From IMG/VR virus record IMGVR_UViG_3300032294_001287, positions 1-39,506 of that record: 39,506 bases of DNA. The stretch is one strand, 5' to 3'. Source of the DNA: a virus (taxonomy: Duplodnaviria; Caudoviricetes). Below, piece after piece: positions 19,879-39,506 of this stretch (the stretch's first letter is position 1; each line of letters opens with the position of its first letter). The translations under genes were made by a program, and so were the position numbers. The notes under the pieces were generated by a model. That model worked only from the letters and a program-made list of their open reading frames with translations, did not search any database and was not told where the DNA came from.

Positions 19879-19894
19879 GAGAGTAGTGTGTTAC

Positions 19895-19924
19895 CCGCTG
19901 CCGTTTCTACGGCGGTGGTTTTTT
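19895..19924 (+). terminator. Promoter-proximal intrinsic terminator / attenuator
   Basis: CCGCTGCCGT-TTCT-ACGGCGGTGG hairpin followed by T6. Confidence 0.6.
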
Positions 19925-20041
19925 AGTCAGGTGGCGAAATTGGCAGACGCAGGGTTTAGTGTTGCTGATGTAGATAGGCAACTTGTCACGCAGCGAGATA
20001 GCGTACCCTTTCTATTGTAGGTTCGACCCCTACCCTGACTG
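19925..20041 (+). tRNA. tRNA-like RNA with a ~49 nt structured insert replacing the anticodon loop; no assignable anticodon
   Basis: Acceptor AGTCAGG/CCTGACT, D-arm GCG-AAATTGGCAGA-CGC, T-arm GTAGG-TTCGACC-CCTAC, stem AGGGT/ACCCT enclosing the insert. Confidence 0.7.
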
Positions 20042-21617: not shown

Positions 21618-21650
21618 TTTGGAATTCGGTTATGCGTTGCCGTATGTTTG
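21618..21650 (+). promoter_or_regulatory. Full-consensus Bacteroidota sigma-A promoter (putative major early promoter)
   Basis: TTTG (21618-21) - 21 nt - TATGTTTG (21643-50), with an AT-rich tract upstream. Confidence 0.8.
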
Positions 21651-21654
21651 CAAA

Positions 21655-21975
21655 GTCAAACGGAAACGGGTAACCGAAAAATTTGACAAAGTTCTTTTCA
21701 TCGCTGCTGCACACCCGACCTAATTAAGTCGCTTAGTCCCTGCGGTATGGTTACGATACGAGCATGAAGAATGCCAAGTAACTCGAGGTTGACCCCCTCG
21801 GCGCATAATATCAGTCCCTGTGTGGTATCACTAGACTACGCTTGTAAGATGTGCGCCAAACCTCGGTAGTTCCGAGTTAGGGTGTTGGGGTTGCCAAACC
21901 GAAAGGAGTAACCTACTGCCGAGATCCCATTGAGGTCGATTTATCACCTCTTTGCCCTCTAAGTGCATAAGTAAA
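21655..21975 (+). ncRNA. Structured leader / candidate ncRNA between promoter and ribozyme
   Basis: No credible sense ORF. Stems GTCAAA/TTTGAC, CGAGG/CCTCG, GGCGCATA/TGTGCGCC, CTCGGTAGT/ACTGCCGAG, GGTTGC/GTAACC enclosing CC-GAAA-GG, GAGGT/ACCTC. Confidence 0.6.
21689..21697 (+). promoter_or_regulatory. boxA-like antitermination element
   Basis: AAGTTCTTT right after the first leader hairpin GTCAAA/TTTGAC, resembling rrn boxA (GCTCTTT core). Confidence 0.4.
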
Positions 21976-22030
21976 AAGCGTCTGCGGATATGCTGTCCGC
22001 ACTGATGAGCCACGGCATGGCGAAACGCTT
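21976..22030 (+). ncRNA. Hammerhead ribozyme, type III
   Basis: Stem III AAGCGT/ACGCTT; GTC cleavage triplet (cut after 21982); stem I TGCGGATA/TGTCCGCA; core CTGATGA; stem II GCCA/TGGC; GAAA. Loop I TGC is complementary to GCA in loop II. Confidence 0.93.
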
Positions 22031-22042
22031 AAACTAACAAAA

Positions 22043-22225
22043 ATGATTAAGGTAAAGTATGAAAATTCTTGGTACGGATATCAAGGTCGGGACGGCTTTG
22101 CATTGTATGTAGATGGCAAAAAAATGCATATAGGTTTATTCGTGTCAGTATCTGCATTGAGGGATTATTGGAGGGCATATATGCCAATGTTGTCAGCGGG
22201 AATGATACCACATCAGTATCAGTAA
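22043..22225 (+). CDS. Small early hypothetical protein
   Basis: First ORF after the ribozyme, A-rich start context. Confidence 0.6.
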   Translation: MIKVKYENSWYGYQGRDGFALYVDGKKMHIGLFVSVSALRDYWRAYMPMLSAGMIPHQYQ

Positions 22226-22232
22226 CTGCCCC

Positions 22233-22276
22233 GAACTGCGATGGTCTTAACATTGGTTCGAGTCCAATGGCAGTTC
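22233..22276 (+). repeat. Mini-tRNA-like element, copy 1
   Basis: GAACTGC-GATGGTCTTAA-CATTGG-TTCGAGT-CCAATG-GCAGTTC. Confidence 0.75.
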
Positions 22277-22291
22277 CTTAAACACACACAC

Positions 22292-22396
22292 ATGAAAAAA
22301 GTGATCCTCTTTTTCGCCCTCGTGATATGCGTTAACGCTATCGGTTGGCACTATTCAGCACACAAACAATGTATACATCTAAACACACACAAATGA
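22292..22396 (+). CDS. Small hydrophobic peptide (34 aa), not in ORF track
   Basis: MKKVILFFALVICVNAIGWHYSAHKQCIHLNTHK; ATGA overlap with next ORF. Confidence 0.5.
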   Translation: MKKVILFFALVICVNAIGWHYSAHKQCIHLNTHK

Positions 22397-22584
22397 GAGT
22401 ACGCAAACCTTTGGCAGTAGTTAGCTGCCGTCCCGAACAAAAGCCCATCATCAGGCAGAGAGCATTCAGCACCCATGCTCGCATTAAATACCTAGTTCAG
22501 CAGCTAGGTCTTGACCCCCTCCAGTATCAGAGAGAAGCAAAGCTAAGATGCCTATTCCGTGAACTACAAACCCAAAGCATATGA
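22393..22584 (+). CDS. Small basic hypothetical protein
   Basis: MRVRKPLAVV..., ATGA-coupled at both ends. Confidence 0.5.
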   Translation: MRVRKPLAVVSCRPEQKPIIRQRAFSTHARIKYLVQQLGLDPLQYQREAKLRCLFRELQTQSI

Positions 22585-22655
22585 AACAGCTAATTCAGTT
22601 ACTTATTGCCCTAGTGGTAGCTATGTACCTTATCGGCTTATTGCAGTCCATTTAA
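22581..22655 (+). CDS. Single-TM peptide (24 aa), not in ORF track
   Basis: MKQLIQLLIALVVAMYLIGLLQSI; stop 6 nt before mini-tRNA copy 2. Confidence 0.5.
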   Translation: MKQLIQLLIALVVAMYLIGLLQSI

Positions 22656-22661
22656 GCCCCC

Positions 22662-22709
22662 GAACTGCCCCCATTCTGATGGCATCTCGTTCGTGACGAG
22701 AGGCAGTTC
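22662..22709 (+). repeat. Mini-tRNA-like element, copy 2
   Basis: GAACTGCC-CCCATTCTGATGGCA-TCTCG-TTCGTGA-CGAGA-GGCAGTTC. Confidence 0.75.
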
Positions 22710-22730
22710 CTCATCAAAAACTCACACACT

Positions 22731-22925
22731 ATGACTATTTACGATGCGTGTTCTATCGTGGAGGGATTCTGCGGATATGAACCTACTGAAGAAGAGCAAC
22801 TCCAAGCGTGGTCTTACCTGATTAAATCAGGCGATGCATGGAAATTGCAAGGATGGTATGGCAGAAACGCCTCCTACTTAATTGATGCGGGATATATTTC
22901 TAAATCAGGCGAAGTTTTAAACTAA
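22731..22925 (+). CDS. Small hypothetical phage protein
   Basis: EEEQLQAWSYLIKSGDAWKLQGWYGR resembles a recurrent small phage protein type; AAAAACTCACACACT start context. Confidence 0.7.
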   Translation: MTIYDACSIVEGFCGYEPTEEEQLQAWSYLIKSGDAWKLQGWYGRNASYLIDAGYISKSGEVLN

Positions 22926-22939
22926 AAAACTCAAACATT

Positions 22940-23134
22940 ATGAACTATTCATTCTACCTATTCAGCAAGTTATTTGACGTTTATCACACCACCGAAGCCC
23001 CATACGATGAACTATTTGAGGAGGTAAAAGCAATGTACAAAGATTGGCTAGTATGGGATGTTGACAATGGTAAAAATATAGGCGAATACGAGTCTATGTG
23101 CGAATATCTCGCTACGACTGCCCCCGAAATTTAA
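22940..23134 (+). CDS. Small acidic hypothetical protein
   Basis: 64 aa, shared AAAAACTCA start context. Confidence 0.6.
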   Translation: MNYSFYLFSKLFDVYHTTEAPYDELFEEVKAMYKDWLVWDVDNGKNIGEYESMCEYLATTAPEI

Positions 23135-23152
23135 TAACTCAAAAACTCACAT

Positions 23153-23314
23153 ATGTCATACCAATTTATCGCCCACTTTGATGGCAGAGAAATATCAAAG
23201 GAATTCGACAGCATCGAGCAATGCCTTCGTGAAGCAGAAAATATGCAGCTACTGGGCTGCGAATATGTCGAGGTGCTGATTAACAATGAAACTTATTGTG
23301 AATACGAAAACTAA
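23153..23314 (+). CDS. Small acidic hypothetical protein (53 aa), not in ORF track
   Basis: MSYQFIAHFDGREISKEFDSIEQCLREAENMQLLGCEYVEVLINNETYCEYEN. Confidence 0.6.
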   Translation: MSYQFIAHFDGREISKEFDSIEQCLREAENMQLLGCEYVEVLINNETYCEYEN

Positions 23315-23320
23315 AATACC

Positions 23321-23503
23321 ATGAAAATGTACCATCACGTAATCGAAGAGGGTCACTACGGCAATGTTGGAACTCATGGCTACTACGATAAAATCGAAGA
23401 TGCCAAAAAAAGAGTAGCGGAATTGCAAGATATGTTCCCAAAGATGTTCTTCTATGTCTACTCATCGCCAAGCAAAAGTGAACCCGAATTTATCACCATC
23501 TAA
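23321..23503 (+). CDS. Small hypothetical protein
   Basis: 60 aa, tightly packed in the array. Confidence 0.6.
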   Translation: MKMYHHVIEEGHYGNVGTHGYYDKIEDAKKRVAELQDMFPKMFFYVYSSPSKSEPEFITI

Positions 23504-23514
23504 ACTCAAACACT

Positions 23515-23667
23515 ATGGTAAAAGTATATTTTGAAACGGGAAGCTATGCAGAACTAGTAGCGACATTCGACAGCGAAGAAACCTACGATGCCTGCTTTAG
23601 CGCACTGGAAGCACTAGCAAAAAAGAACGGATTTGAATTTGTCACTGAAAGCGTAGAGGACTTATAG
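23515..23667 (+). CDS. Small acidic protein (50 aa), paralog A; not in ORF track
   Basis: MVKVYFETGSYAELVATFDSEETYDACFSALEALAKKNGFEFVTESVEDL. Confidence 0.75.
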   Translation: MVKVYFETGSYAELVATFDSEETYDACFSALEALAKKNGFEFVTESVEDL

Positions 23668-23673
23668 TCCCCC

Positions 23674-23719
23674 GAACTGCCCCATACCGATGGCATCTCG
23701 TTCGTGACGAGAGCAGTTC
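23674..23719 (+). repeat. Mini-tRNA-like element, copy 3
   Basis: GAACTGC-CCCATACCGATGGCA-TCTCG-TTCGTGA-CGAGA-GCAGTTC (canonical 7+5 bp coaxial geometry). Confidence 0.75.
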
Positions 23720-23737
23720 CACACTAAAACAAACACT

Positions 23738-23887
23738 ATGATTGAAGTCTATTTTGAAACCAAAGGCTACGCAGAATTAGTAGCAGTATTCTACAATGAA
23801 GATGCCTACATGTCTGCTCTCCCATCGCTACAAGAACAATGCTTGAAGATGGGTTTTGAAAATGTAACTGAATCAGTAAACCAATAA
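23738..23887 (+). CDS. Small acidic protein (49 aa), paralog B; not in ORF track
   Basis: MIEVYFETKGYAELVAVFYNEDAYMSALPSLQEQCLKMGFENVTESVNQ, aligns with paralog A without gaps. Confidence 0.75.
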   Translation: MIEVYFETKGYAELVAVFYNEDAYMSALPSLQEQCLKMGFENVTESVNQ

Positions 23888-23898
23888 AACCACACACG

Positions 23899-24123
23899 AT
23901 GCTTACAATTTCACAACAACGAGAAATCGACAACGCAAGAGCAGTTCTAAAAAGTTACGGCTATTATGTTGAAAACCTTTGGCACATTGAAGATGTGTTT
24001 CCAAAGCATGATTGCACCGATGATGAGGCATACGATATCCTTGATGAAGCTATGCAAAATGACGCTACATATGAGCAGATATGGATGTCTATTGATTACG
24101 CAATTGATAAAGTAAAAAAATAA
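23899..24123 (+). CDS. Small acidic hypothetical protein
   Basis: 74 aa, array start context. Confidence 0.65.
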   Translation: MLTISQQREIDNARAVLKSYGYYVENLWHIEDVFPKHDCTDDEAYDILDEAMQNDATYEQIWMSIDYAIDKVKK

Positions 24124-24134
24124 AACTCACACAC

Positions 24135-24341
24135 ATGAACCAACTATTTTCAATAAGCGGATATTGGAAAGATGACAAGTCCGAATTCTCCGACTACATC
24201 GTTTCTTCCAGTGATGACATAGGCGAAGATGATGACATCTTTTTCTATGGACTATCCGAAAGTGAACTATCCGAAGCGGTAACGCTGGGAGAAAACACCG
24301 CACACGAATTTGTTATCACCCATTACGAACCGATAAACTAA
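24135..24341 (+). CDS. Small acidic hypothetical protein
   Basis: 68 aa, AAAACTCACACAC start context. Confidence 0.65.
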   Translation: MNQLFSISGYWKDDKSEFSDYIVSSSDDIGEDDDIFFYGLSESELSEAVTLGENTAHEFVITHYEPIN

Positions 24342-24347
24342 ACCACC

Positions 24348-24644
24348 ATGACACTACTACAAAAAATCGAATCAGTAAGACAAGAAGCCATCGAAAAGAT
24401 AAAGCGAAACGGAAGCCAAGTTCTATACGATGAAGCGAAGCATGACCTATATGACCTGCCACATCATCACGATACGGACAAGTACGGAAACTACAATCAG
24501 TTCGCTATCGTCTCTTACTTTGTAGACGGCGATGACATTGTCTTTAAGGGTAAGGATGTAGAGGAGGTTTTTGAGGAGAGAGATTTCCATGTAGCAGAAC
24601 TAGACACCGACTCTCTTGCATATATAGCAGACGAGTGGATATAA
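24348..24644 (+). CDS. Acidic hypothetical protein
   Basis: 98 aa; stop 6 nt before mini-tRNA copy 4. Confidence 0.65.
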   Translation: MTLLQKIESVRQEAIEKIKRNGSQVLYDEAKHDLYDLPHHHDTDKYGNYNQFAIVSYFVDGDDIVFKGKDVEEVFEERDFHVAELDTDSLAYIADEWI

Positions 24645-24650
24645 TCCCCC

Positions 24651-24693
24651 GAACTGCGATGGTCTTACAAAGGTTCGACTCCTTTGGCAGTTC
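24651..24693 (+). repeat. Mini-tRNA-like element, copy 4
   Basis: GAACTGC-GATGGTCTTA-CAAAGG-TTCGACT-CCTTTG-GCAGTTC; T-stem shows two compensatory base-pair changes versus copy 1. Confidence 0.75.
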
Positions 24694-24712
24694 CTCACTA
24701 AAACAAACAACA

Positions 24713-24877
24713 ATGGCATACAACATTAATTACCTCACCGCAGATGGTGAAATCATTGACGAAACTCAAGTTGATGAACTAAATGACGAGTTGATCTGGG
24801 ATTTATTCAGAGAGTTTGGTCATACCAAATCAGAAGGTATTTACTACGAGGTTGAAGAAGTTGAAGAGGATGAATAA
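24713..24877 (+). CDS. Small very acidic protein (54 aa)
   Basis: Start moved to ATG 24713 (MAYNINYL), downstream of the mini-tRNA element. Confidence 0.6.
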   Translation: MAYNINYLTADGEIIDETQVDELNDELIWDLFREFGHTKSEGIYYEVEEVEEDE

Positions 24878-24916
24878 CCCCCGAACCAATTTAATAACCA
24901 ATAAAAACTAGAAAAA

Positions 24917-25093
24917 ATGCACCCACTACTTGAAGCAAAACTGAAAAATAAAGAACTTATTGATGCAGTTATTGACCAAATCCTGAAGGATGTAAACGAT
25001 GGAGATACAACTGCCGTTTGGGTTCTATTATCCAACATGCCATATGACGAATTACTCCAATTCCTTCCCGAAGAAGAGTGGAGTAAATATTAA
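24917..25093 (+). CDS. Small hypothetical protein (58 aa), not in ORF track
   Basis: MHPLLEAKLKNKELIDAVIDQILKDVNDGDTTAVWVLLSNMPYDELLQFLPEEEWSKY; flanked by CCCCCGAAC on both sides. Confidence 0.6.
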   Translation: MHPLLEAKLKNKELIDAVIDQILKDVNDGDTTAVWVLLSNMPYDELLQFLPEEEWSKY

Positions 25094-25133
25094 ACACCCC
25101 CGAACCAATCCCAAACGATAAAAACTCAAAGCC

Positions 25134-25403
25134 ATGTATACCTACTACCGCAAGTCAGACCAAGTGACCATCCCCGACAACTCCTCATCCAAATGTGATT
25201 GCGGAGAATCATCGGCACTAAACATTGACTACGAAACAAAAGTTATCACGTGTGATGCTTGCTACAGCGAAGCACCAATGCATCAGCAGTGGAACGATGC
25301 AGATATTGTATCTCAATTCGGCGCAAAGGTAGCATCCAACACCTATGATTTTTGGAATGAAACATATTTTATAAATCCTAACCAATCATTGACCCATCTA
25401 TGA
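25134..25403 (+). CDS. Putative zinc-binding small protein
   Basis: CDC...CDAC. Confidence 0.55.
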   Translation: MYTYYRKSDQVTIPDNSSSKCDCGESSALNIDYETKVITCDACYSEAPMHQQWNDADIVSQFGAKVASNTYDFWNETYFINPNQSLTHL

Positions 25404-25657
25404 AGATAACAGCTACCGCACCATCAGCCCTATATCTTGGCTGCCTACGAATGTTCGGGATGCCTTTTGAAAAGCAAACCGATGGCACGTTCACCGCTGA
25501 AAAATGTTTCGCATCTGAAAGGGATGCAAAGGACTACCTAAGACAGCGAGCAAAGCACTACAGCATGGGAGAAGATTATTTGGAAGAATCATTCGAAGAT
25601 ATTGAAAGCTACGGATGCTTGCGCCTTGACCATGTGACCGCATACATCGAAAAATAA
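25400..25657 (+). CDS. Hypothetical protein
   Basis: 85 aa, ATGA-coupled. Confidence 0.6.
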   Translation: MKITATAPSALYLGCLRMFGMPFEKQTDGTFTAEKCFASERDAKDYLRQRAKHYSMGEDYLEESFEDIESYGCLRLDHVTAYIEK

Positions 25658-25676
25658 CACACTAAACCAACACACT

Positions 25677-26042
25677 ATGAACATCAGAAAATTTATTGCA
25701 CTTGCAATGTCAAATGGAGGAGGCAGCTACTGCCTATTCACTGGCGAATGTAACCCGAAGGAAGGTTACATGGTCAGCTTAAAAGGTCACGAAAATAGCG
25801 TGAATGAACTGAATTTCGAGAGTGTTCAAGAGTACTTCTCTCGCAATGCTCACCTCTTAACTATGCCCGATCATTACTTCGGTTTGTGGAAGAATGGTGA
25901 CGAGTGGGTGATGGATGTGTCGGTAAACGAGACCGACCTACACAAAGCAATTGAACTTGGCGATAACAACGATCAGAAAGCATTGTGGGATTGCGCCAAT
26001 AGTGAGGAGGTATGGATTCAGAAAATAAAAAATGTAGGATAA
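25677..26042 (+). CDS. Hypothetical phage protein
   Basis: GG.S...GYMVS...FGLW...MDVS...AIELG...Q.ALWD pattern resembles a recurrent phage protein type. Confidence 0.7.
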   Translation: MNIRKFIALAMSNGGGSYCLFTGECNPKEGYMVSLKGHENSVNELNFESVQEYFSRNAHLLTMPDHYFGLWKNGDEWVMDVSVNETDLHKAIELGDNNDQKALWDCANSEEVWIQKIKNVG

Positions 26043-26043
26043 G

Positions 26044-26124
26044 ATGCAAAAGTATACTGACGATATAAACCGATTTATAGTACTAACATTTATCGCAGCC
26101 ATCATCATGGCGCTGATAATTTAA
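26044..26124 (+). CDS. Single-TM peptide (26 aa), not in ORF track
   Basis: MQKYTDDINRFIVLTFIAAIIMALII fills the gap between two ORFs. Confidence 0.4.
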   Translation: MQKYTDDINRFIVLTFIAAIIMALII

Positions 26125-26134
26125 ACCCCAAACC

Positions 26135-26419
26135 ATGATTAAAGCAGTAATCACCCTGATGGATAACTCGGATAGGTTATCAATCATCTTTCAGCAAAAC
26201 CATGTCACCCGACATATCGAGTTCAACAAGCGAACTGAAGGTGTGACATCAAACCAACAATCAGACAAGCAGCTTGCCTACCTACTGGCATCGATGGTGT
26301 GCGACAAGTACCACATCAAAGCCAATGGTCAGCTAGTGGACGTAAAGTATAGCTTGGATGTTGCAGAGGAAGAGAAGAAACGTCTAGAGCAAATGGGATC
26401 AAGTGTTGTGATAGTTTAG
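26135..26419 (+). CDS. Hypothetical protein
   Basis: 94 aa, A/C-rich start context. Confidence 0.6.
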   Translation: MIKAVITLMDNSDRLSIIFQQNHVTRHIEFNKRTEGVTSNQQSDKQLAYLLASMVCDKYHIKANGQLVDVKYSLDVAEEEKKRLEQMGSSVVIV

Positions 26420-26429
26420 GTGTATGGTA

Positions 26430-26507
26430 AGTCAGGTGGCGTAATTGGTAACGCCCTAGCCCTACTCTAAAGGGTAGAAGATACAGGTTCGAATCCTGTC
26501 CTGACTA
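26430..26507 (+). tRNA. Atypical tRNA; anticodon ambiguous (TCT Arg by loop position, CTA amber by CT-NNN-AA register)
   Basis: Acceptor AGTCAGG/CCTGACT-A, D-arm GCGT/ACGC, T-arm ACAGG-TTCGAAT-CCTGT, extended bulged anticodon stem CTA(G)CCCT/AGGGTAG, loop ACTCTAA; no encoded CCA. Confidence 0.75.
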
Positions 26508-27979: not shown

Positions 27980-29008
27980 ATGGTTACGCTAAGAAAAAGA
28001 AAGAACAAAGATGGCAGCACATCGCTGCGATTAGACATTTACTACGATGGTATTCGTAGAGTAGAGACATTAAAGCTGAAGCTCATTGTCCCCCGAACTG
28101 CCCAAGATCGGGAGTACAACCGAAGAGCGCTTCGTGATGCCCAGTCCATCGCCATGCAACGAGCAAGGGAGATCGAGTCTGGGCATTACAATTTGTCCTC
28201 CAACCCAGTGGTTGCAGACTGGATGCAAAGCTACATCGATTCCTACACAAAGAAGGATAAGAGGAACATGCAGGGCGCACTCAATAAGTTCATCGAGTGC
28301 AATGGTCGGATCACATTCAACTCCCTCAACCCAGCAGCAATCGATAAGTACATCGATCACCTTGAGTCCAACCAAGCAGGTGAAGGAGCGAAGTCCTACT
28401 TCTGCAGGTTCAACAAGATGGTCAAGCATGCATACAAGCTCGGCATCATCAGGGTAAACCCCATCCTTCTGACTGACAAGAGGGTCAGAGGCAGGGCTTC
28501 CAAGAGGGACATCCTTACACTTGATGAGGTTCGTAAACTTAAGAGCACTCCCCTATCAAACGATCATGTAAGACGTGCAGCACTTCTAAGCTGTGTTACT
28601 GGTCTTGCTTGGGTCGATGTTATGGAGCTGAAGTGGGAACACATCAGAGATGGAAGGATAGTAAAGGTTCGGGAGAAGCTTACAGCAGACAACGTAGAGG
28701 TTATTGTTCCATTAAACGATACCGCTATAGAACTACTCGGTGCTAGGGGTGAAGGCTATGTATTTGATCTCCCTTCAGCCAATGGCGCCAATAAATTACT
28801 AAAGGGTTGGGTTAAACGTGCCGGCATAGATAAGAGGATCACGTGGCACAATCTGAGACATTCATTCGGAACCAACCTTATCTACAATGGGGTCGACCTT
28901 CTCACCACATCCAAGCTGCTTGGTCATCAGACTACCAAGCACACCATGAGGTATGTAGACGCAGCAGAAGACATGAAATCAAACGCAGTAAAAAAGATAG
29001 AACTATGA
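27980..29008 (+). CDS. int: Tyrosine integrase, Bacteroidota type (arm-binding, core-binding and catalytic domains)
   Basis: MVTLRKRKNKDGSTSLRLDIYYDG arm-binding N-terminus; TGLAWVD, ITWHNLRHSF, SKLLGH, TMRY. Confidence 0.92.
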   Translation: MVTLRKRKNKDGSTSLRLDIYYDGIRRVETLKLKLIVPRTAQDREYNRRALRDAQSIAMQRAREIESGHYNLSSNPVVADWMQSYIDSYTKKDKRNMQGALNKFIECNGRITFNSLNPAAIDKYIDHLESNQAGEGAKSYFCRFNKMVKHAYKLGIIRVNPILLTDKRVRGRASKRDILTLDEVRKLKSTPLSNDHVRRAALLSCVTGLAWVDVMELKWEHIRDGRIVKVREKLTADNVEVIVPLNDTAIELLGARGEGYVFDLPSANGANKLLKGWVKRAGIDKRITWHNLRHSFGTNLIYNGVDLLTTSKLLGHQTTKHTMRYVDAAEDMKSNAVKKIEL

Positions 29009-29121
29009 AGCATGTAATATTATTCTTCGCACTGGTAGTGCCAGTCACACTTATGATCGCATCATCGATCATCATTTTATTTCAAATAGGACTCTCTAAA
29101 ATCAAGAAATTATGGTCATAA
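29005..29121 (+). CDS. Single-TM peptide (38 aa)
   Basis: MKHVILFFALVVPVTLMIASSIIILFQIGLSKIKKLWS; ATGA-coupled to int. Confidence 0.5.
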   Translation: MKHVILFFALVVPVTLMIASSIIILFQIGLSKIKKLWS

Positions 29122-30242
29122 TCAAGCAATCTGGCTACTATTACGCTAAAGTAAAGATAGATGGCAGAGAGAAGCGATACTCTCTTGGTGTTAAGCACAT
29201 CTCCGCAGAAGGTAAGGAGCTCGCCAAGAAAATATACTCCGATACTGGAAGTATTGACGAGGTTCGTAAGGCTTTGCAGTCACAGACAGAAGACCTTGCC
29301 AGCCTAGCCATGAGGTTTGTCGAGAACATGCCCAACAAGAAGGGTAAACCATATTCCCCAGCCAGCATCAGGACGTATCTAAACGTAGCCAAACATCTTG
29401 CATCGTTCGCTGACGAGTACAAGCCCATAGACCTTAATGACTACAATCTTGAAGGCGAGTACGAGATCAAGAGGCGCAAGGCAGACCAGTTTACTGCATA
29501 CTTCTATGCGTTCGATGATTGGATGACAGATCGTGGTCTTGAGATCACATCTCGTGAGCCCATCATGAGCGTTGTCAGTGTGTTTGTGCGCCACTGGGCA
29601 GAGCATTACTTCCTCAACCTGCCAAAGGTTCCCAAGCTTGAGAAGGTGGAGAAGCCAGTCATTGTTCTCGACCCCAGCTTCTACCAGAAGTTCATGGCGG
29701 ATGATCTATACTACAAACTAGACTCAAACATGAAGGTAGTTTGGGAGGTAGCAGCAACGATCCTAGCATCTACTATGAGGATCAGCGACGTGATGTCTAT
29801 GAAACCTTCAGACTTAATACAAGGCGATCAGATGATGTTCAGCAAGGTCACTTCTAAGACTGGTGAAGCGTGTGAGCTTCCAGTACCTGATCGACTGGCG
29901 AATATCTACAAAGACAACCTAAAGAACGGCAGCGTATTCTCAGGAGAGCTGAATAGGTCTTACATATACGACAACCTCAGAGTCCTTTTCGCCATGTATG
30001 AAGAGCTTCATGTGGACTACTCGGTGCTGGGTGTGACTAAGCCAATGTACGAGTGGGTAACACCACACATGCTTCGCAAGACAGCGATCACTTCCTACCT
30101 ATACTTTGGTGTGAGCGAGATGCACGTCAAGCATGCGTCATCGCACAGCAAGGACAGCAAAGCATTCAGAAGGTACACCAAGGTTATAGAGACAAGGTTC
30201 AAGTCAGACTTTCTTGGAGTTCACCAGCGAATGGGAATCTAG
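29112..30242 (+). CDS. Second, divergent tyrosine recombinase
   Basis: STMRISDV (Arg), TSKTG (Lys), TPHMLRKT (HxxR), ASSH, FRRY (Tyr); YSPASIRTY core-binding segment. Confidence 0.85.
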   Translation: MVIIKQSGYYYAKVKIDGREKRYSLGVKHISAEGKELAKKIYSDTGSIDEVRKALQSQTEDLASLAMRFVENMPNKKGKPYSPASIRTYLNVAKHLASFADEYKPIDLNDYNLEGEYEIKRRKADQFTAYFYAFDDWMTDRGLEITSREPIMSVVSVFVRHWAEHYFLNLPKVPKLEKVEKPVIVLDPSFYQKFMADDLYYKLDSNMKVVWEVAATILASTMRISDVMSMKPSDLIQGDQMMFSKVTSKTGEACELPVPDRLANIYKDNLKNGSVFSGELNRSYIYDNLRVLFAMYEELHVDYSVLGVTKPMYEWVTPHMLRKTAITSYLYFGVSEMHVKHASSHSKDSKAFRRYTKVIETRFKSDFLGVHQRMGI

Positions 30243-38335: not shown

Positions 38336-38491
38336 CAGTAAGATAATGTGCAATAAACTGCACATTAAGCAGTGTTTTTGTCCCTTATGACGGATGTTAT
38401 ACATATAAGTGCTATAGACTGCACTATGATTAGGTTTAAAAACGAACCAAAATTTATACTCACAGTATCATTATAAACAAAAAAACAAACT

Positions 38492-38719
38492 ATGAAACAA
38501 ACAGCAGTAGAATGGTTGATTAATAGAATTGCAGAAAAGGAATTACGAACAGAAATAGAATGGAAAGAAATATTTGAACAAGCCAAAGCAATGGAGAAAG
38601 AGCAGATTGAGAATGCTTATTGGGATGGAGGTCAAGATGTACCTACTACAGAAAAAATATGTGAACAATACTACGCCCAAACCTATAACCAAAACCAACC
38701 CTCACCCCCTAAACCTTAG
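38492..38719 (+). CDS. MKQTAVEW-type small protein, copy 1
   Basis: MKQTAVEWL...AKAMEKEQI..AY...YY.QTY. Confidence 0.7.
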   Translation: MKQTAVEWLINRIAEKELRTEIEWKEIFEQAKAMEKEQIENAYWDGGQDVPTTEKICEQYYAQTYNQNQPSPPKP

Positions 38720-38722
38720 TAT

Positions 38723-38941
38723 ATGATACAGACAGCAGTAGAATACATAATAGATAAAGTCAAGTCAACAGAATGGCAAGATATGTTTATATGGCATAAA
38801 GAAGAAGTATTTGAACAAGCTAAAAAATTAGAAAAGGAGCAGATAATGAATGCTTATAATGATGGAAGAATATGTATAAAGCCATTAGATGTAATGGTTG
38901 AAGAAGAATACTACAACCAAACCTATAACCAAAACAAATAA
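38723..38941 (+). CDS. MKQTAVEW-type small protein, copy 2
   Basis: MIQTAVEYI...AKKLEKEQI..AY...YYNQTY. Confidence 0.7.
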   Translation: MIQTAVEYIIDKVKSTEWQDMFIWHKEEVFEQAKKLEKEQIMNAYNDGRICIKPLDVMVEEEYYNQTYNQNK

Positions 38942-38944
38942 CCT

Positions 38945-39181
38945 ATGAACAAAGAAACAAAATGGACACTTGAATCAATTAAGATTGAATTAATTAGATG
39001 GGGTGATGATGTTGGAAAATATAAGGGTACAATAGTTTTTAGAAACGAAGATGCAGACCAATTTACTTTTCAATTGAACCCTACTTTAGCTAACGCTTAT
39101 TTAGAGTTAATTAAAGACACAGTTTTGTTGTCAGCTAATCAGTTAGTAGAAAAATTAAAACAATCATTAGAAAACAAATAA
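38945..39181 (+). CDS. Hypothetical protein
   Basis: 78 aa, flanked by 19 bp direct repeats. Confidence 0.6.
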   Translation: MNKETKWTLESIKIELIRWGDDVGKYKGTIVFRNEDADQFTFQLNPTLANAYLELIKDTVLLSANQLVEKLKQSLENK

Positions 39182-39184
39182 CCT

Positions 39185-39412
39185 ATGAAACAAACGGCAG
39201 TAGAATGGTTGATTAAGGAAATTAAAAACTTTGATAGTGGTCGTAGCGAATACTATAGTAAAGTAGCAATCTATAATCACGCTTATAGAATGGAGAAAGA
39301 GCAGATATTTGATGCATGGGATAGCGCATTAATAAACACCCACATTGCAAGCAACTCTATTGGTGTGCCTTACGATAAAGAGAAATACTACAACGAAACA
39401 TATAACAAATGA
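39185..39412 (+). CDS. MKQTAVEW-type small protein, copy 3
   Basis: MKQTAVEWL...MEKEQI..AW...YYNETY. Confidence 0.7.
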   Translation: MKQTAVEWLIKEIKNFDSGRSEYYSKVAIYNHAYRMEKEQIFDAWDSALINTHIASNSIGVPYDKEKYYNETYNK

Positions 39413-39506
39413 TCACCAACGAGCAGAATGTTTTAAACGCCAACATCCCCAACCTTAAACTAAAGGTTCGTAGGAGCTGGCTTACCAAGAAAGAAGAAGA
39501 TCGAAA
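39409..39506 (+). CDS. Partial ORF running off the window
   Basis: ATGA-coupled start MITNEQNVLNANIP..., open to the end. Confidence 0.5.
   Translation, partial: MITNEQNVLNANIPNLKLKVRRSWLTKKEEDR

Follow-up and report, generated by a model that had tools for sequence, protein, structure and literature searches.

The early genes of a tailed phage were found to be separated by miniature tRNA-like elements, here called minis, which form a real, uncatalogued family of RNA elements present throughout a phage clade. The DNA examined is a stretch of 39,506 nucleotides (nt) (IMG/VR virus record IMGVR_UViG_3300032294_001287, positions 1 to 39,506; Duplodnaviria, Caudoviricetes), referred to as the window. 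The minis probably mark the sites at which host RNase P and RNase Z would cut one long message.

In the window, the minis lie on the plus strand among 20 small open reading frames (ORFs) of 24 to 121 amino acids, which were called between a hammerhead ribozyme and a tRNA-like unit (22043 to 26419) and have A/C-rich, G-poor leaders. A preliminary description of this DNA had listed about 20 tiny ORFs and four mini-tRNA elements here, and all were recovered on that strand. According to the folding results, mini 1 (22233 to 22276) has 7+6 base pairs (bp), the linker GAUGGUCUUAA and the loop UUCGAGU; mini 2 (22662 to 22709) has 8+5 bp, a hairpin linker and the loop UUCGUGA; mini 3 (23674 to 23719) has 7+5 bp with the same kind of linker and the same loop; and mini 4 (24651 to 24693) has 7+6 bp, the linker GAUGGUCUUA and the loop UUCGACU. 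The next AUG is found at +15, +21, +18 and +19 after the helix, respectively. Each mini is 43 to 48 nt long and forms a single coaxial helix of 12 to 13 bp (acceptor plus T-stem) with a 7-nt loop, and a linker of 10 to 15 nt replaces the D and anticodon arms. The element starts a few bases 3' of a stop codon and ends 15 to 21 nt before the next AUG. The folding z-scores of the four minis ranged from -2.3 to -4.6. They have no anticodon arm, and none of the four was detected as a decoding tRNA by ARAGORN or RF00005; the search of Rfam gave no match for the minis either. Inside the array, both sigma-70 promoters (14 versus 15.4) and terminators (8 versus 6.0) were at chance level. Among the small ORFs scanned, only ORF 22731-22925 belonged to a known family (phrog_3908, DUF7417).

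Relatives of the window were collected by pattern scans and a terminase search, which converged on one clade. A covariance model was run on 30 of the 79 terminase loci. It matched 14 of the 17 records with a terminase identity of at least 52%, and 0 of the 13 records at 35 to 47% identity, four of which were more than 90% complete. The three misses were a record with the array at the contig end (G003), one with a mini containing one mismatch (G009) and one that was 32% complete (G017). The co-occurrence of these elements in related phages, as predicted earlier, holds in this clade. Because some related records are near copies, counts across relatives are not independent. Seven high-GC pattern matches (L004, L005, L017, L018, L026, L034 and L041) lacked context and were dropped.

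Several results supported the structure. When candidates were chosen by the outer motif alone, 59 of 72 distinct ones had a perfect T-arm with the loop NNCG, against a mean of 0.48 and a maximum of 3 for shuffled interiors. The 13 misfits consisted of seven copies of a variant with a 6-nt loop and six chance-like sequences. In the main type (26 copies), 335 of 335 cells were paired and double changes were found in 8 of 13 pairs, which was equalled in 0 of 500 shuffles. A perfect 6-bp T-stem, unspecified by the search pattern, was present in 20 of 21 new copies from metagenome loci. A scan by shape only, covering 1.37 Mb from 27 sources, returned 109 minis in the early sense, against 5 in the opposite sense and 2 in Markov controls; this enrichment is partly circular because 103 of the 109 lay inside early windows drawn around known elements.

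The collection comprised 96 distinct minis from 22 genomes, with up to 7 copies per genome. The helix had 13 bp in 63 minis and 12 bp in 33. The linker contained GG in 86 minis, and the pair G53-C61 was present in 78. Linkers were D-loop remnants (ATGGT, AGTGG) or small hairpins, with at least five types, and an ATGG linker went together with a UUCGANU loop in 39 of 40 cases. The minis have the full or partial tRNA shape that defines a tRNA-like structure, and GG in the linker corresponds to the bases with which the T-loop pairs in a tRNA elbow (PMC10424219). The acceptor/T helix and the elbow bases covary or are invariant, and the tertiary fold is predicted. The word CCCCGARC was absent from 30 of the 96 minis, and 36 different 5' acceptor strands were found; therefore, it is the shape, not the sequence, that is kept.

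A second device was found in the same places. Spacers of the mini type carried 11 type I hammerheads with a complete core in 7 genomes, called by core pattern and folds (three were folded). The AUG followed the predicted hammerhead cut by 19 nt in seven cases, 20 nt in two and 22 nt in one, and was not found in the remaining case; after the mini helix, the offset peaked at 19 nt (35/96), lay between 18 and 20 nt in 58 of 96, and formed a second group at 14 to 16 nt. The same leader, Y-U-M-A-Y-C-A-A-A, followed minis and type I hammerheads alike. Its first base was Y at a frequency of 0.97 after minis and 1.0 after hammerheads, compared with 0.38 in 120 device-free early ORFs; these have the A run as well but lack the six bases at the start of the leader. 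For four protein families, the upstream device is a mini in one phage but a type I hammerhead in a different one, and in genome G029 a hammerhead was located 3' of a leftover CCCGAACTGC. The simplest reading is that both devices would make the same 5' end. Since spacers of this kind are also used by type I hammerheads, whose predicted cut would leave the same leader, the minis most likely mark cuts.

The structure and its covariation, the elbow nucleotides, the strand and position, the interchange with hammerheads and the common leader can be taken as established by sequence and by comparison among relatives. From these, we infer a single transcript starting at the promoter, its cleavage, the enzymes involved and the release of RNAs of 43 to 48 nt. 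In the mechanism that we propose, the minis would act in cis as mimics of the tRNA elbow, made of an acceptor stem, a T-arm and a D-loop remnant and devoid of an anticodon arm. On a presumed early transcript, RNase P would cut first at the 5' foot of the helix and RNase Z second at the 3' foot, within 1 nt of the helix end and on either side of a conserved C. The predicted products are a free RNA of 43 to 48 nt and a downstream mRNA with an unstructured leader of 18 to 19 nt. The new 5' end would be the main product, exposing the A-rich initiation region used by Bacteroidota ribosomes, and it is probably the point of the device, given that one cut, the downstream one, is all that a type I hammerhead requires.

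Among host enzymes, it is RNase P and RNase Z that recognize an elbow on an acceptor/T helix, and they are proposed here from the shape of the substrate only. In bacteria, RNase P makes stacking contacts with the elbow and can cleave hairpins of the acceptor/T type (PMC11143913). RNase Z cuts trailers without CCA after the discriminator and is inhibited by a C or CCA there (PMC7479834). After the mini helix, C comes directly next in 91 of the 96 minis, CCA is found in 1 and U is the second base in 76; the last two counts make the trailers a likely fit for RNase Z. Both feet of the helix are expected to stay open because the bases flanking it before and after pair in 0 of 96 minis. The order of the two cuts is predicted from two archaeal RNase Z enzymes, which required a mature 5' end (PMC7479834). 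Translation in Flavobacterium is favoured when the initiation region is unstructured and has A at -12/-13 (PMC6847099), and A is found at these positions in the shared leader. The earlier idea that self-cleavage and host tRNA-processing enzymes together cut one transcript stands in part: punctuation of the early transcript is the reading with the best support, given the slots and the leader common to hammerheads and minis, and RNase P and RNase Z are its putative enzymes.

A number of observations fit this mechanism poorly. Hairpin models that RNase P cuts carry a 3' RCCA (PMC11143913), which the minis do not have. Two thirds of the minis have a 13-bp helix, compared with the 12-bp ruler. Position 58 of the T-loop is not A in 17 of 96 minis, and the loop has 6 nt in 14 of 96. 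The near-invariant C (91/96) is left unexplained, since the identity of the discriminator reportedly does not matter to RNase Z (PMC7479834). A device is present in only 5 of about 20 spacers of the window. G-U pairs are absent from 87 of 96 minis in a scan that allowed at most one, and DNA hairpins would look likewise. The type I hammerheads rest on core patterns and folds, with RF00163 of Rfam matching 1 of 5 records below its cut-off. Finally, the related genomes are not independent samples.

These points leave room for other explanations. Left uncut, the minis might insulate or stabilize the message in place by blocking an exonuclease, keeping the initiation region single stranded or recruiting an elbow-binding factor. 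The fixed distance between mini and AUG would suit such a role, and so would the A at -12/-13 of the leader in view of the Flavobacterium results (PMC6847099). However, a plain hairpin would suffice for it, yet the elbow nucleotides are conserved, and the first six leader bases are those of a hammerhead product and are missing from device-free genes. We consider this role unlikely.

Alternatively, the cut could be real but made by another agent, such as a self-cleaving element (a new small ribozyme) or a nuclease encoded by the phage or by the host other than the two named. New ribozyme classes have indeed come from slots used by hammerheads (PMC6765202), and the conserved C, together with an AUG register set by the helix end in both the 12- and the 13-bp forms, makes the fit to RNase Z imperfect. 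Against this, all conserved bases are bases of the tRNA elbow, the linkers of at least five types offer no common catalytic core, and full-size tRNA-like units with free anticodon arms occupy the same slots, so that a different cutter seems quite unlikely.

A main function in trans, with freed, CCA-tagged minis serving as decoys for tRNA-targeting defences or titrating tRNA enzymes, appears very unlikely. A copy number of up to 7 in a genome, behind a strong promoter, could favour it, free RNAs would follow if RNase P and RNase Z both cut, and in Mycobacterium smegmatis YrlA is a substrate of RNase P and acquires CCA (PMC4201824). However, the hammerhead replacements release no mimic, and the minis occur one per spacer in register with the AUG, never in arrays of their own. 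The suggestion that released mimics are decoys has found little support: the linkers of the minis fall into at least five types, each mini is linked in cis to the start codon that follows it, and there is no anticodon arm. Most tRNA-targeting defences cut the anticodon arm.

The last alternative concerns DNA rather than RNA. A polar DNA word, CCCCGAAC, occurs 16 times in the window compared with 0.56 by chance. Two plus-strand spacers have the word and no device: 24879 to 24916, possibly a lost element, and 25098 to 25133. In 20 clade contigs, the word was found 243 times on one strand and 63 times on the other, within coding DNA, in all frames and irrespective of gene direction; CCCCCGA(A/G)C was similarly biased (348 versus 88) and had 0 occurrences in three outgroup contigs. 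Its positions in the window include 1259, 7491, 8441, 11459, 14033 and 28091. By resemblance, we take the polar word to be Chi-like. It was rejected as an essential part of the RNA signal, as it is also found in coding DNA and is missing from 30 of 96 minis. Judged from its distribution, it is a separate DNA signal overlapping the start of 66 of 96 minis, and it may promote cassette swapping: gene adjacency was kept elsewhere for 9 of 37 element spacers compared with 26 of 58 plain spacers (p 0.052). A tyrosine recombinase (PF00589) is encoded on the plus strand downstream of the array (29112 to 30242), with homologues in 18 of 20 other clade contigs; PF00589 was the sole match of this adjacent recombinase, a candidate at most for an integron integrase. 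A second, Arm-type integrase (27980-29008), located between the array and the conserved recombinase, was absent from 20 other clade contigs and present in the outgroup G020. The attC core-site pattern (AAC...GTT) was not found across the minis, with 36 different 5' acceptor strands among 96 and many without AAC/GTT.

Because the conserved recombinase adjoins the array, the possibility that the minis are borders of DNA cassettes, acting like attC hairpins or as hot spots of recombination through which small genes are shuffled, keeps a slight probability, and their GAAC...GTTC ends, the recombinase that follows the array and the 66 minis that start inside the polar word would agree with it; but we give it the least credence, as those ends vary, the word is absent from 30 minis and scattered through coding DNA, the T-loop and D-loop bases are signatures of RNA, and hammerheads occupy the same slots. 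Shuffling by repeat-driven homologous recombination can be a side effect, compatible with cutting at the minis.

Full-size tRNA-like units were found as well. One is located at 26430 to 26507 on the plus strand (51.2 bits; folding), with a distorted anticodon arm, no CCA and an AUG at +16. Its anticodon stem is bulged and its loop at minimum free energy is ACUCUAA, unlike the 5-bp stem, 7-nt loop and U33 of a regular arm. The label 'Pyl/CUA' given by ARAGORN is not credible because this arm is distorted. An amber suppressor or recoding function was also rejected: several ORFs terminate at TAG, code 11 leaves the late genes open, and the unit has a distorted anticodon arm. The unit is atypical, as had been noted, but does not end the array: the next ORF starts 16 nt on, and no plus-strand terminator was found after it. 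It is one more spacer device, not the end of the transcription unit. The five tRNA-like units listed previously do have a missing or distorted anticodon arm, but a sixth had been overlooked. This unit, on the plus strand at 19925 to 20040, has an acceptor stem as in the 26430 unit together with D-like and T arms, and a long insert replaces its anticodon arm; a terminator-like hairpin (19894-19924) precedes it, and ORF 20043 follows directly. Its counterpart in G031 (29058 in the orientation used for the comparison) has a different insert. Across the clade, 13 such longer units were found on one strand throughout, including the two in the window. They keep the acceptor, D-like and T arms, with an inner part of 35 to 116 nt and loops of 4 to 8 nt. 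The tRNA-like units of G003, G007 and G008 have the T-loops GGCAGGA or GGCAGAU, anticodon loops of 4 to 8 nt and an acceptor stem as in the 26430 unit.

Upstream of the array, the promoter, the boxA-like word and the type III hammerhead of the preliminary description were all confirmed on the plus strand. The promoter was found by pattern match at 21618 to 21650 (TTTG-N21-TAtgTTTG), and we take TTTG-N21-TAnnTTTG to be the Bacteroidota promoter consensus. The pattern was also present upstream of the hammerhead core in 10 other whole contigs and in locus L039. Behind the first hairpin lies the word GTTCTTTTCA (21691 to 21700), which resembles a boxA; GYTCTYT was found 19 to 52 nt behind the promoter in 9 of 11 whole contigs in which the promoter was found. 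The hammerhead (21975 to 22031; predicted cut after C21982) is a full-length match to RF00008 (45.3 bits, E 6.6e-7) with three stems and an intact core (CUGANGA, GAAA and NUH), and its score is below the Rfam gathering cut-off of 48.5 bits. Related records matched RF00008 at E<=0.01 in 13 of 24 cases and exceeded the cut-off in 0 of 24. The complementarity between CUCAUCA, a common trailer of the minis, and UGAUGAG in the core of the hammerhead is probably a coincidence.

The noncoding leader between these elements (21655 to 21982, plus strand), predicted to be released by the hammerhead, had been described as a structured RNA of about 325 nt. Folding and comparison confirmed its presence and the covariation of its 3' modules, but its stability is ordinary (folding z -1.17), and it is a variable mosaic of hairpin modules rather than one conserved RNA. 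Across 13 leaders, z ranged from -3.2 to +1.5 (25 shuffles each). The leaders of relatives have 221 to 636 nt and are only patchily alike; the order that recurs is promoter, first hairpin, boxA-like word, 220 to 640 nt of patchwork sequence and hammerhead. The 3' part of the window leader contains a hairpin with an internal loop, a CCGAAAGG hairpin and a GAUUUAUC hairpin, and covaries in 5 genomes; covariation was limited to these modules (12 of 25 pairs, 5 sequences). No covariance-model match to the large RNAs of Rfam (GOLLD, ROOL, RAGATH and others) was obtained at E<=1 for the window or at E<=5 for 6 related loci. No conserved antisense hairpin against the leader was found in 24 contigs, only scattered matches. 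The boxA-like word makes an rRNA-style antitermination leader plausible.

Gene-family annotation identified the window as a partial tailed-phage genome, with the portal, terminase and structural genes on the minus strand and the block of small genes on the plus strand. It also encodes two tyrosine recombinases, a repressor, Erf/RecE and a primase-helicase. A 63-kb record (G001) is identical to the window over 39,255 bases. The nearest named terminases, about 30% identical, come mostly from Flavobacterium and Cellulophaga phages, and no named phage matched the window leader or capsid; a Bacteroidota host is for these reasons an inference only, which the promoter form and the G-poor leaders fit. 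The host assignment by genome scan was rejected, as its single match, an actinobacterial metagenome-assembled genome, resembles chance. At 38470-39415, the window contains three or four short paralogous ORF repeats sharing starts (repeat families D2, D6, D8, D10 and D13).

Elements of a similar kind were found in cultured phages. Streptomyces phage Lannister, reached through a homologue of ORF 22731, has seven copies of a different elbow element in its early spacers. Similar DNA was present in 135 phage records (113 Streptomyces, 19 Mycobacterium and 3 Gordonia). The actinophage element has a 5+6 bp helix, a linker like ACCGGCAGACA and the loop TTCGAGT followed by AC, and at six loci the outer stem was present in 36 of 38 plus-strand T-arms, nearly all with 11 bp in total. 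Up to 9 repeats are located among small genes (L247 Lannister, L248, L249 Damien, L250, L251 phiHau3 and L252), unannotated in the records examined, and Rfam gave no credible match for them. Two copies in phage Damien have the ATGGT linker, as in the window type. Two further phages, Synechococcus phage MinM2 and Pelagibacter phage HTVC104P, had no minis of the window type in their early regions. Structured spacers of another sort are repeated among the small genes of MinM2 (L245, 258-6852), with CCCTCGCG...GCGTGG stems and a TCCGGTTCAG..TGAACC palindrome that belong to no Rfam family.

Non-decoding tRNA shapes that mark RNase P and RNase Z cuts in long transcripts are known from mitochondrial tRNA punctuation and t-elements, and from mascRNA and menRNA of MALAT1 and NEAT1. 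In contrast to these, the minis belong to the operon of a bacterial virus, have 43 to 48 nt, lack the D-stem and anticodon arm in the main type and are interchangeable with ribozymes; cleavage is established there and predicted here. In the early mRNA of T7, host RNase III cuts one transcript into gene blocks at structured spacers, which are double-stranded hairpins rather than tRNA elbows. Host RNase P also acts on a non-tRNA transcript of phages P1 and P7, C4, which is a single regulatory RNA, unlike the repeated operon punctuation proposed here (cited in PMC11143913). The YrlA Y RNAs of bacteria and phages have a tRNA-like domain with D, T and acceptor parts, and one is cut by RNase P; they are stand-alone RNAs with a Ro60-binding stem and lie beside rsr, whereas the minis are repeated spacers (PMC4201824). 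The minis have no extra stem and no Rfam match, and no Ro60 family was found among 54 window proteins compared with PHROGs. Theta ribozymes likewise combine a ribozyme and a tRNA in Bacteroidota phages with few encoded CCA ends, but they are HDV-like (hepatitis delta virus) and trim the trailers of real tRNAs, in contrast to hammerheads and non-decoding tRNA shapes (PMC10879173). Tandem and intergenic hammerheads have been described between small early genes of phages and prophages, with processing of polycistronic RNA proposed; one of them, in HF1/HF2, precedes a start codon by 13 nt, and a 5' end has been mapped close to its cut (Perreault 2011, PMC3088659; review PMC6765202). Neither tRNA mimics nor a common downstream leader is mentioned in the available parts of these two reports. 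In the literature, no description of tRNA-mimic spacers in phage operons was found; the motif may be present without a function in supplementary lists (Weinberg 2017, Fremin 2023).

Why phages have the many self-cleaving ribozymes found between their genes is not yet settled (PMC6765202). Because a second device would leave the same leader at the same distance, their purpose may be to provide defined 5' ends for translation, and device swapping makes it testable. If cut as predicted, the minis would be a bacterial case of tRNA punctuation and, for RNase P and RNase Z, natural substrates of very small size; in Bacteroidota they could then serve as insulators or in the multiplexed release of RNAs. 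A general punctuation code in phages, in which minimal elbows, present in these Bacteroidota-type phages and in cultured actinophages as a separate family with an 11-bp helix, would be interchangeable with self-cleaving ribozymes, give each early gene block a standard 5' end, serve as the smallest natural RNase P and RNase Z substrates and fill the cell with CCA-accepting mimics, can be put forward only tentatively. The analogous elements in cultured Streptomyces and Mycobacterium phages permit direct tests.

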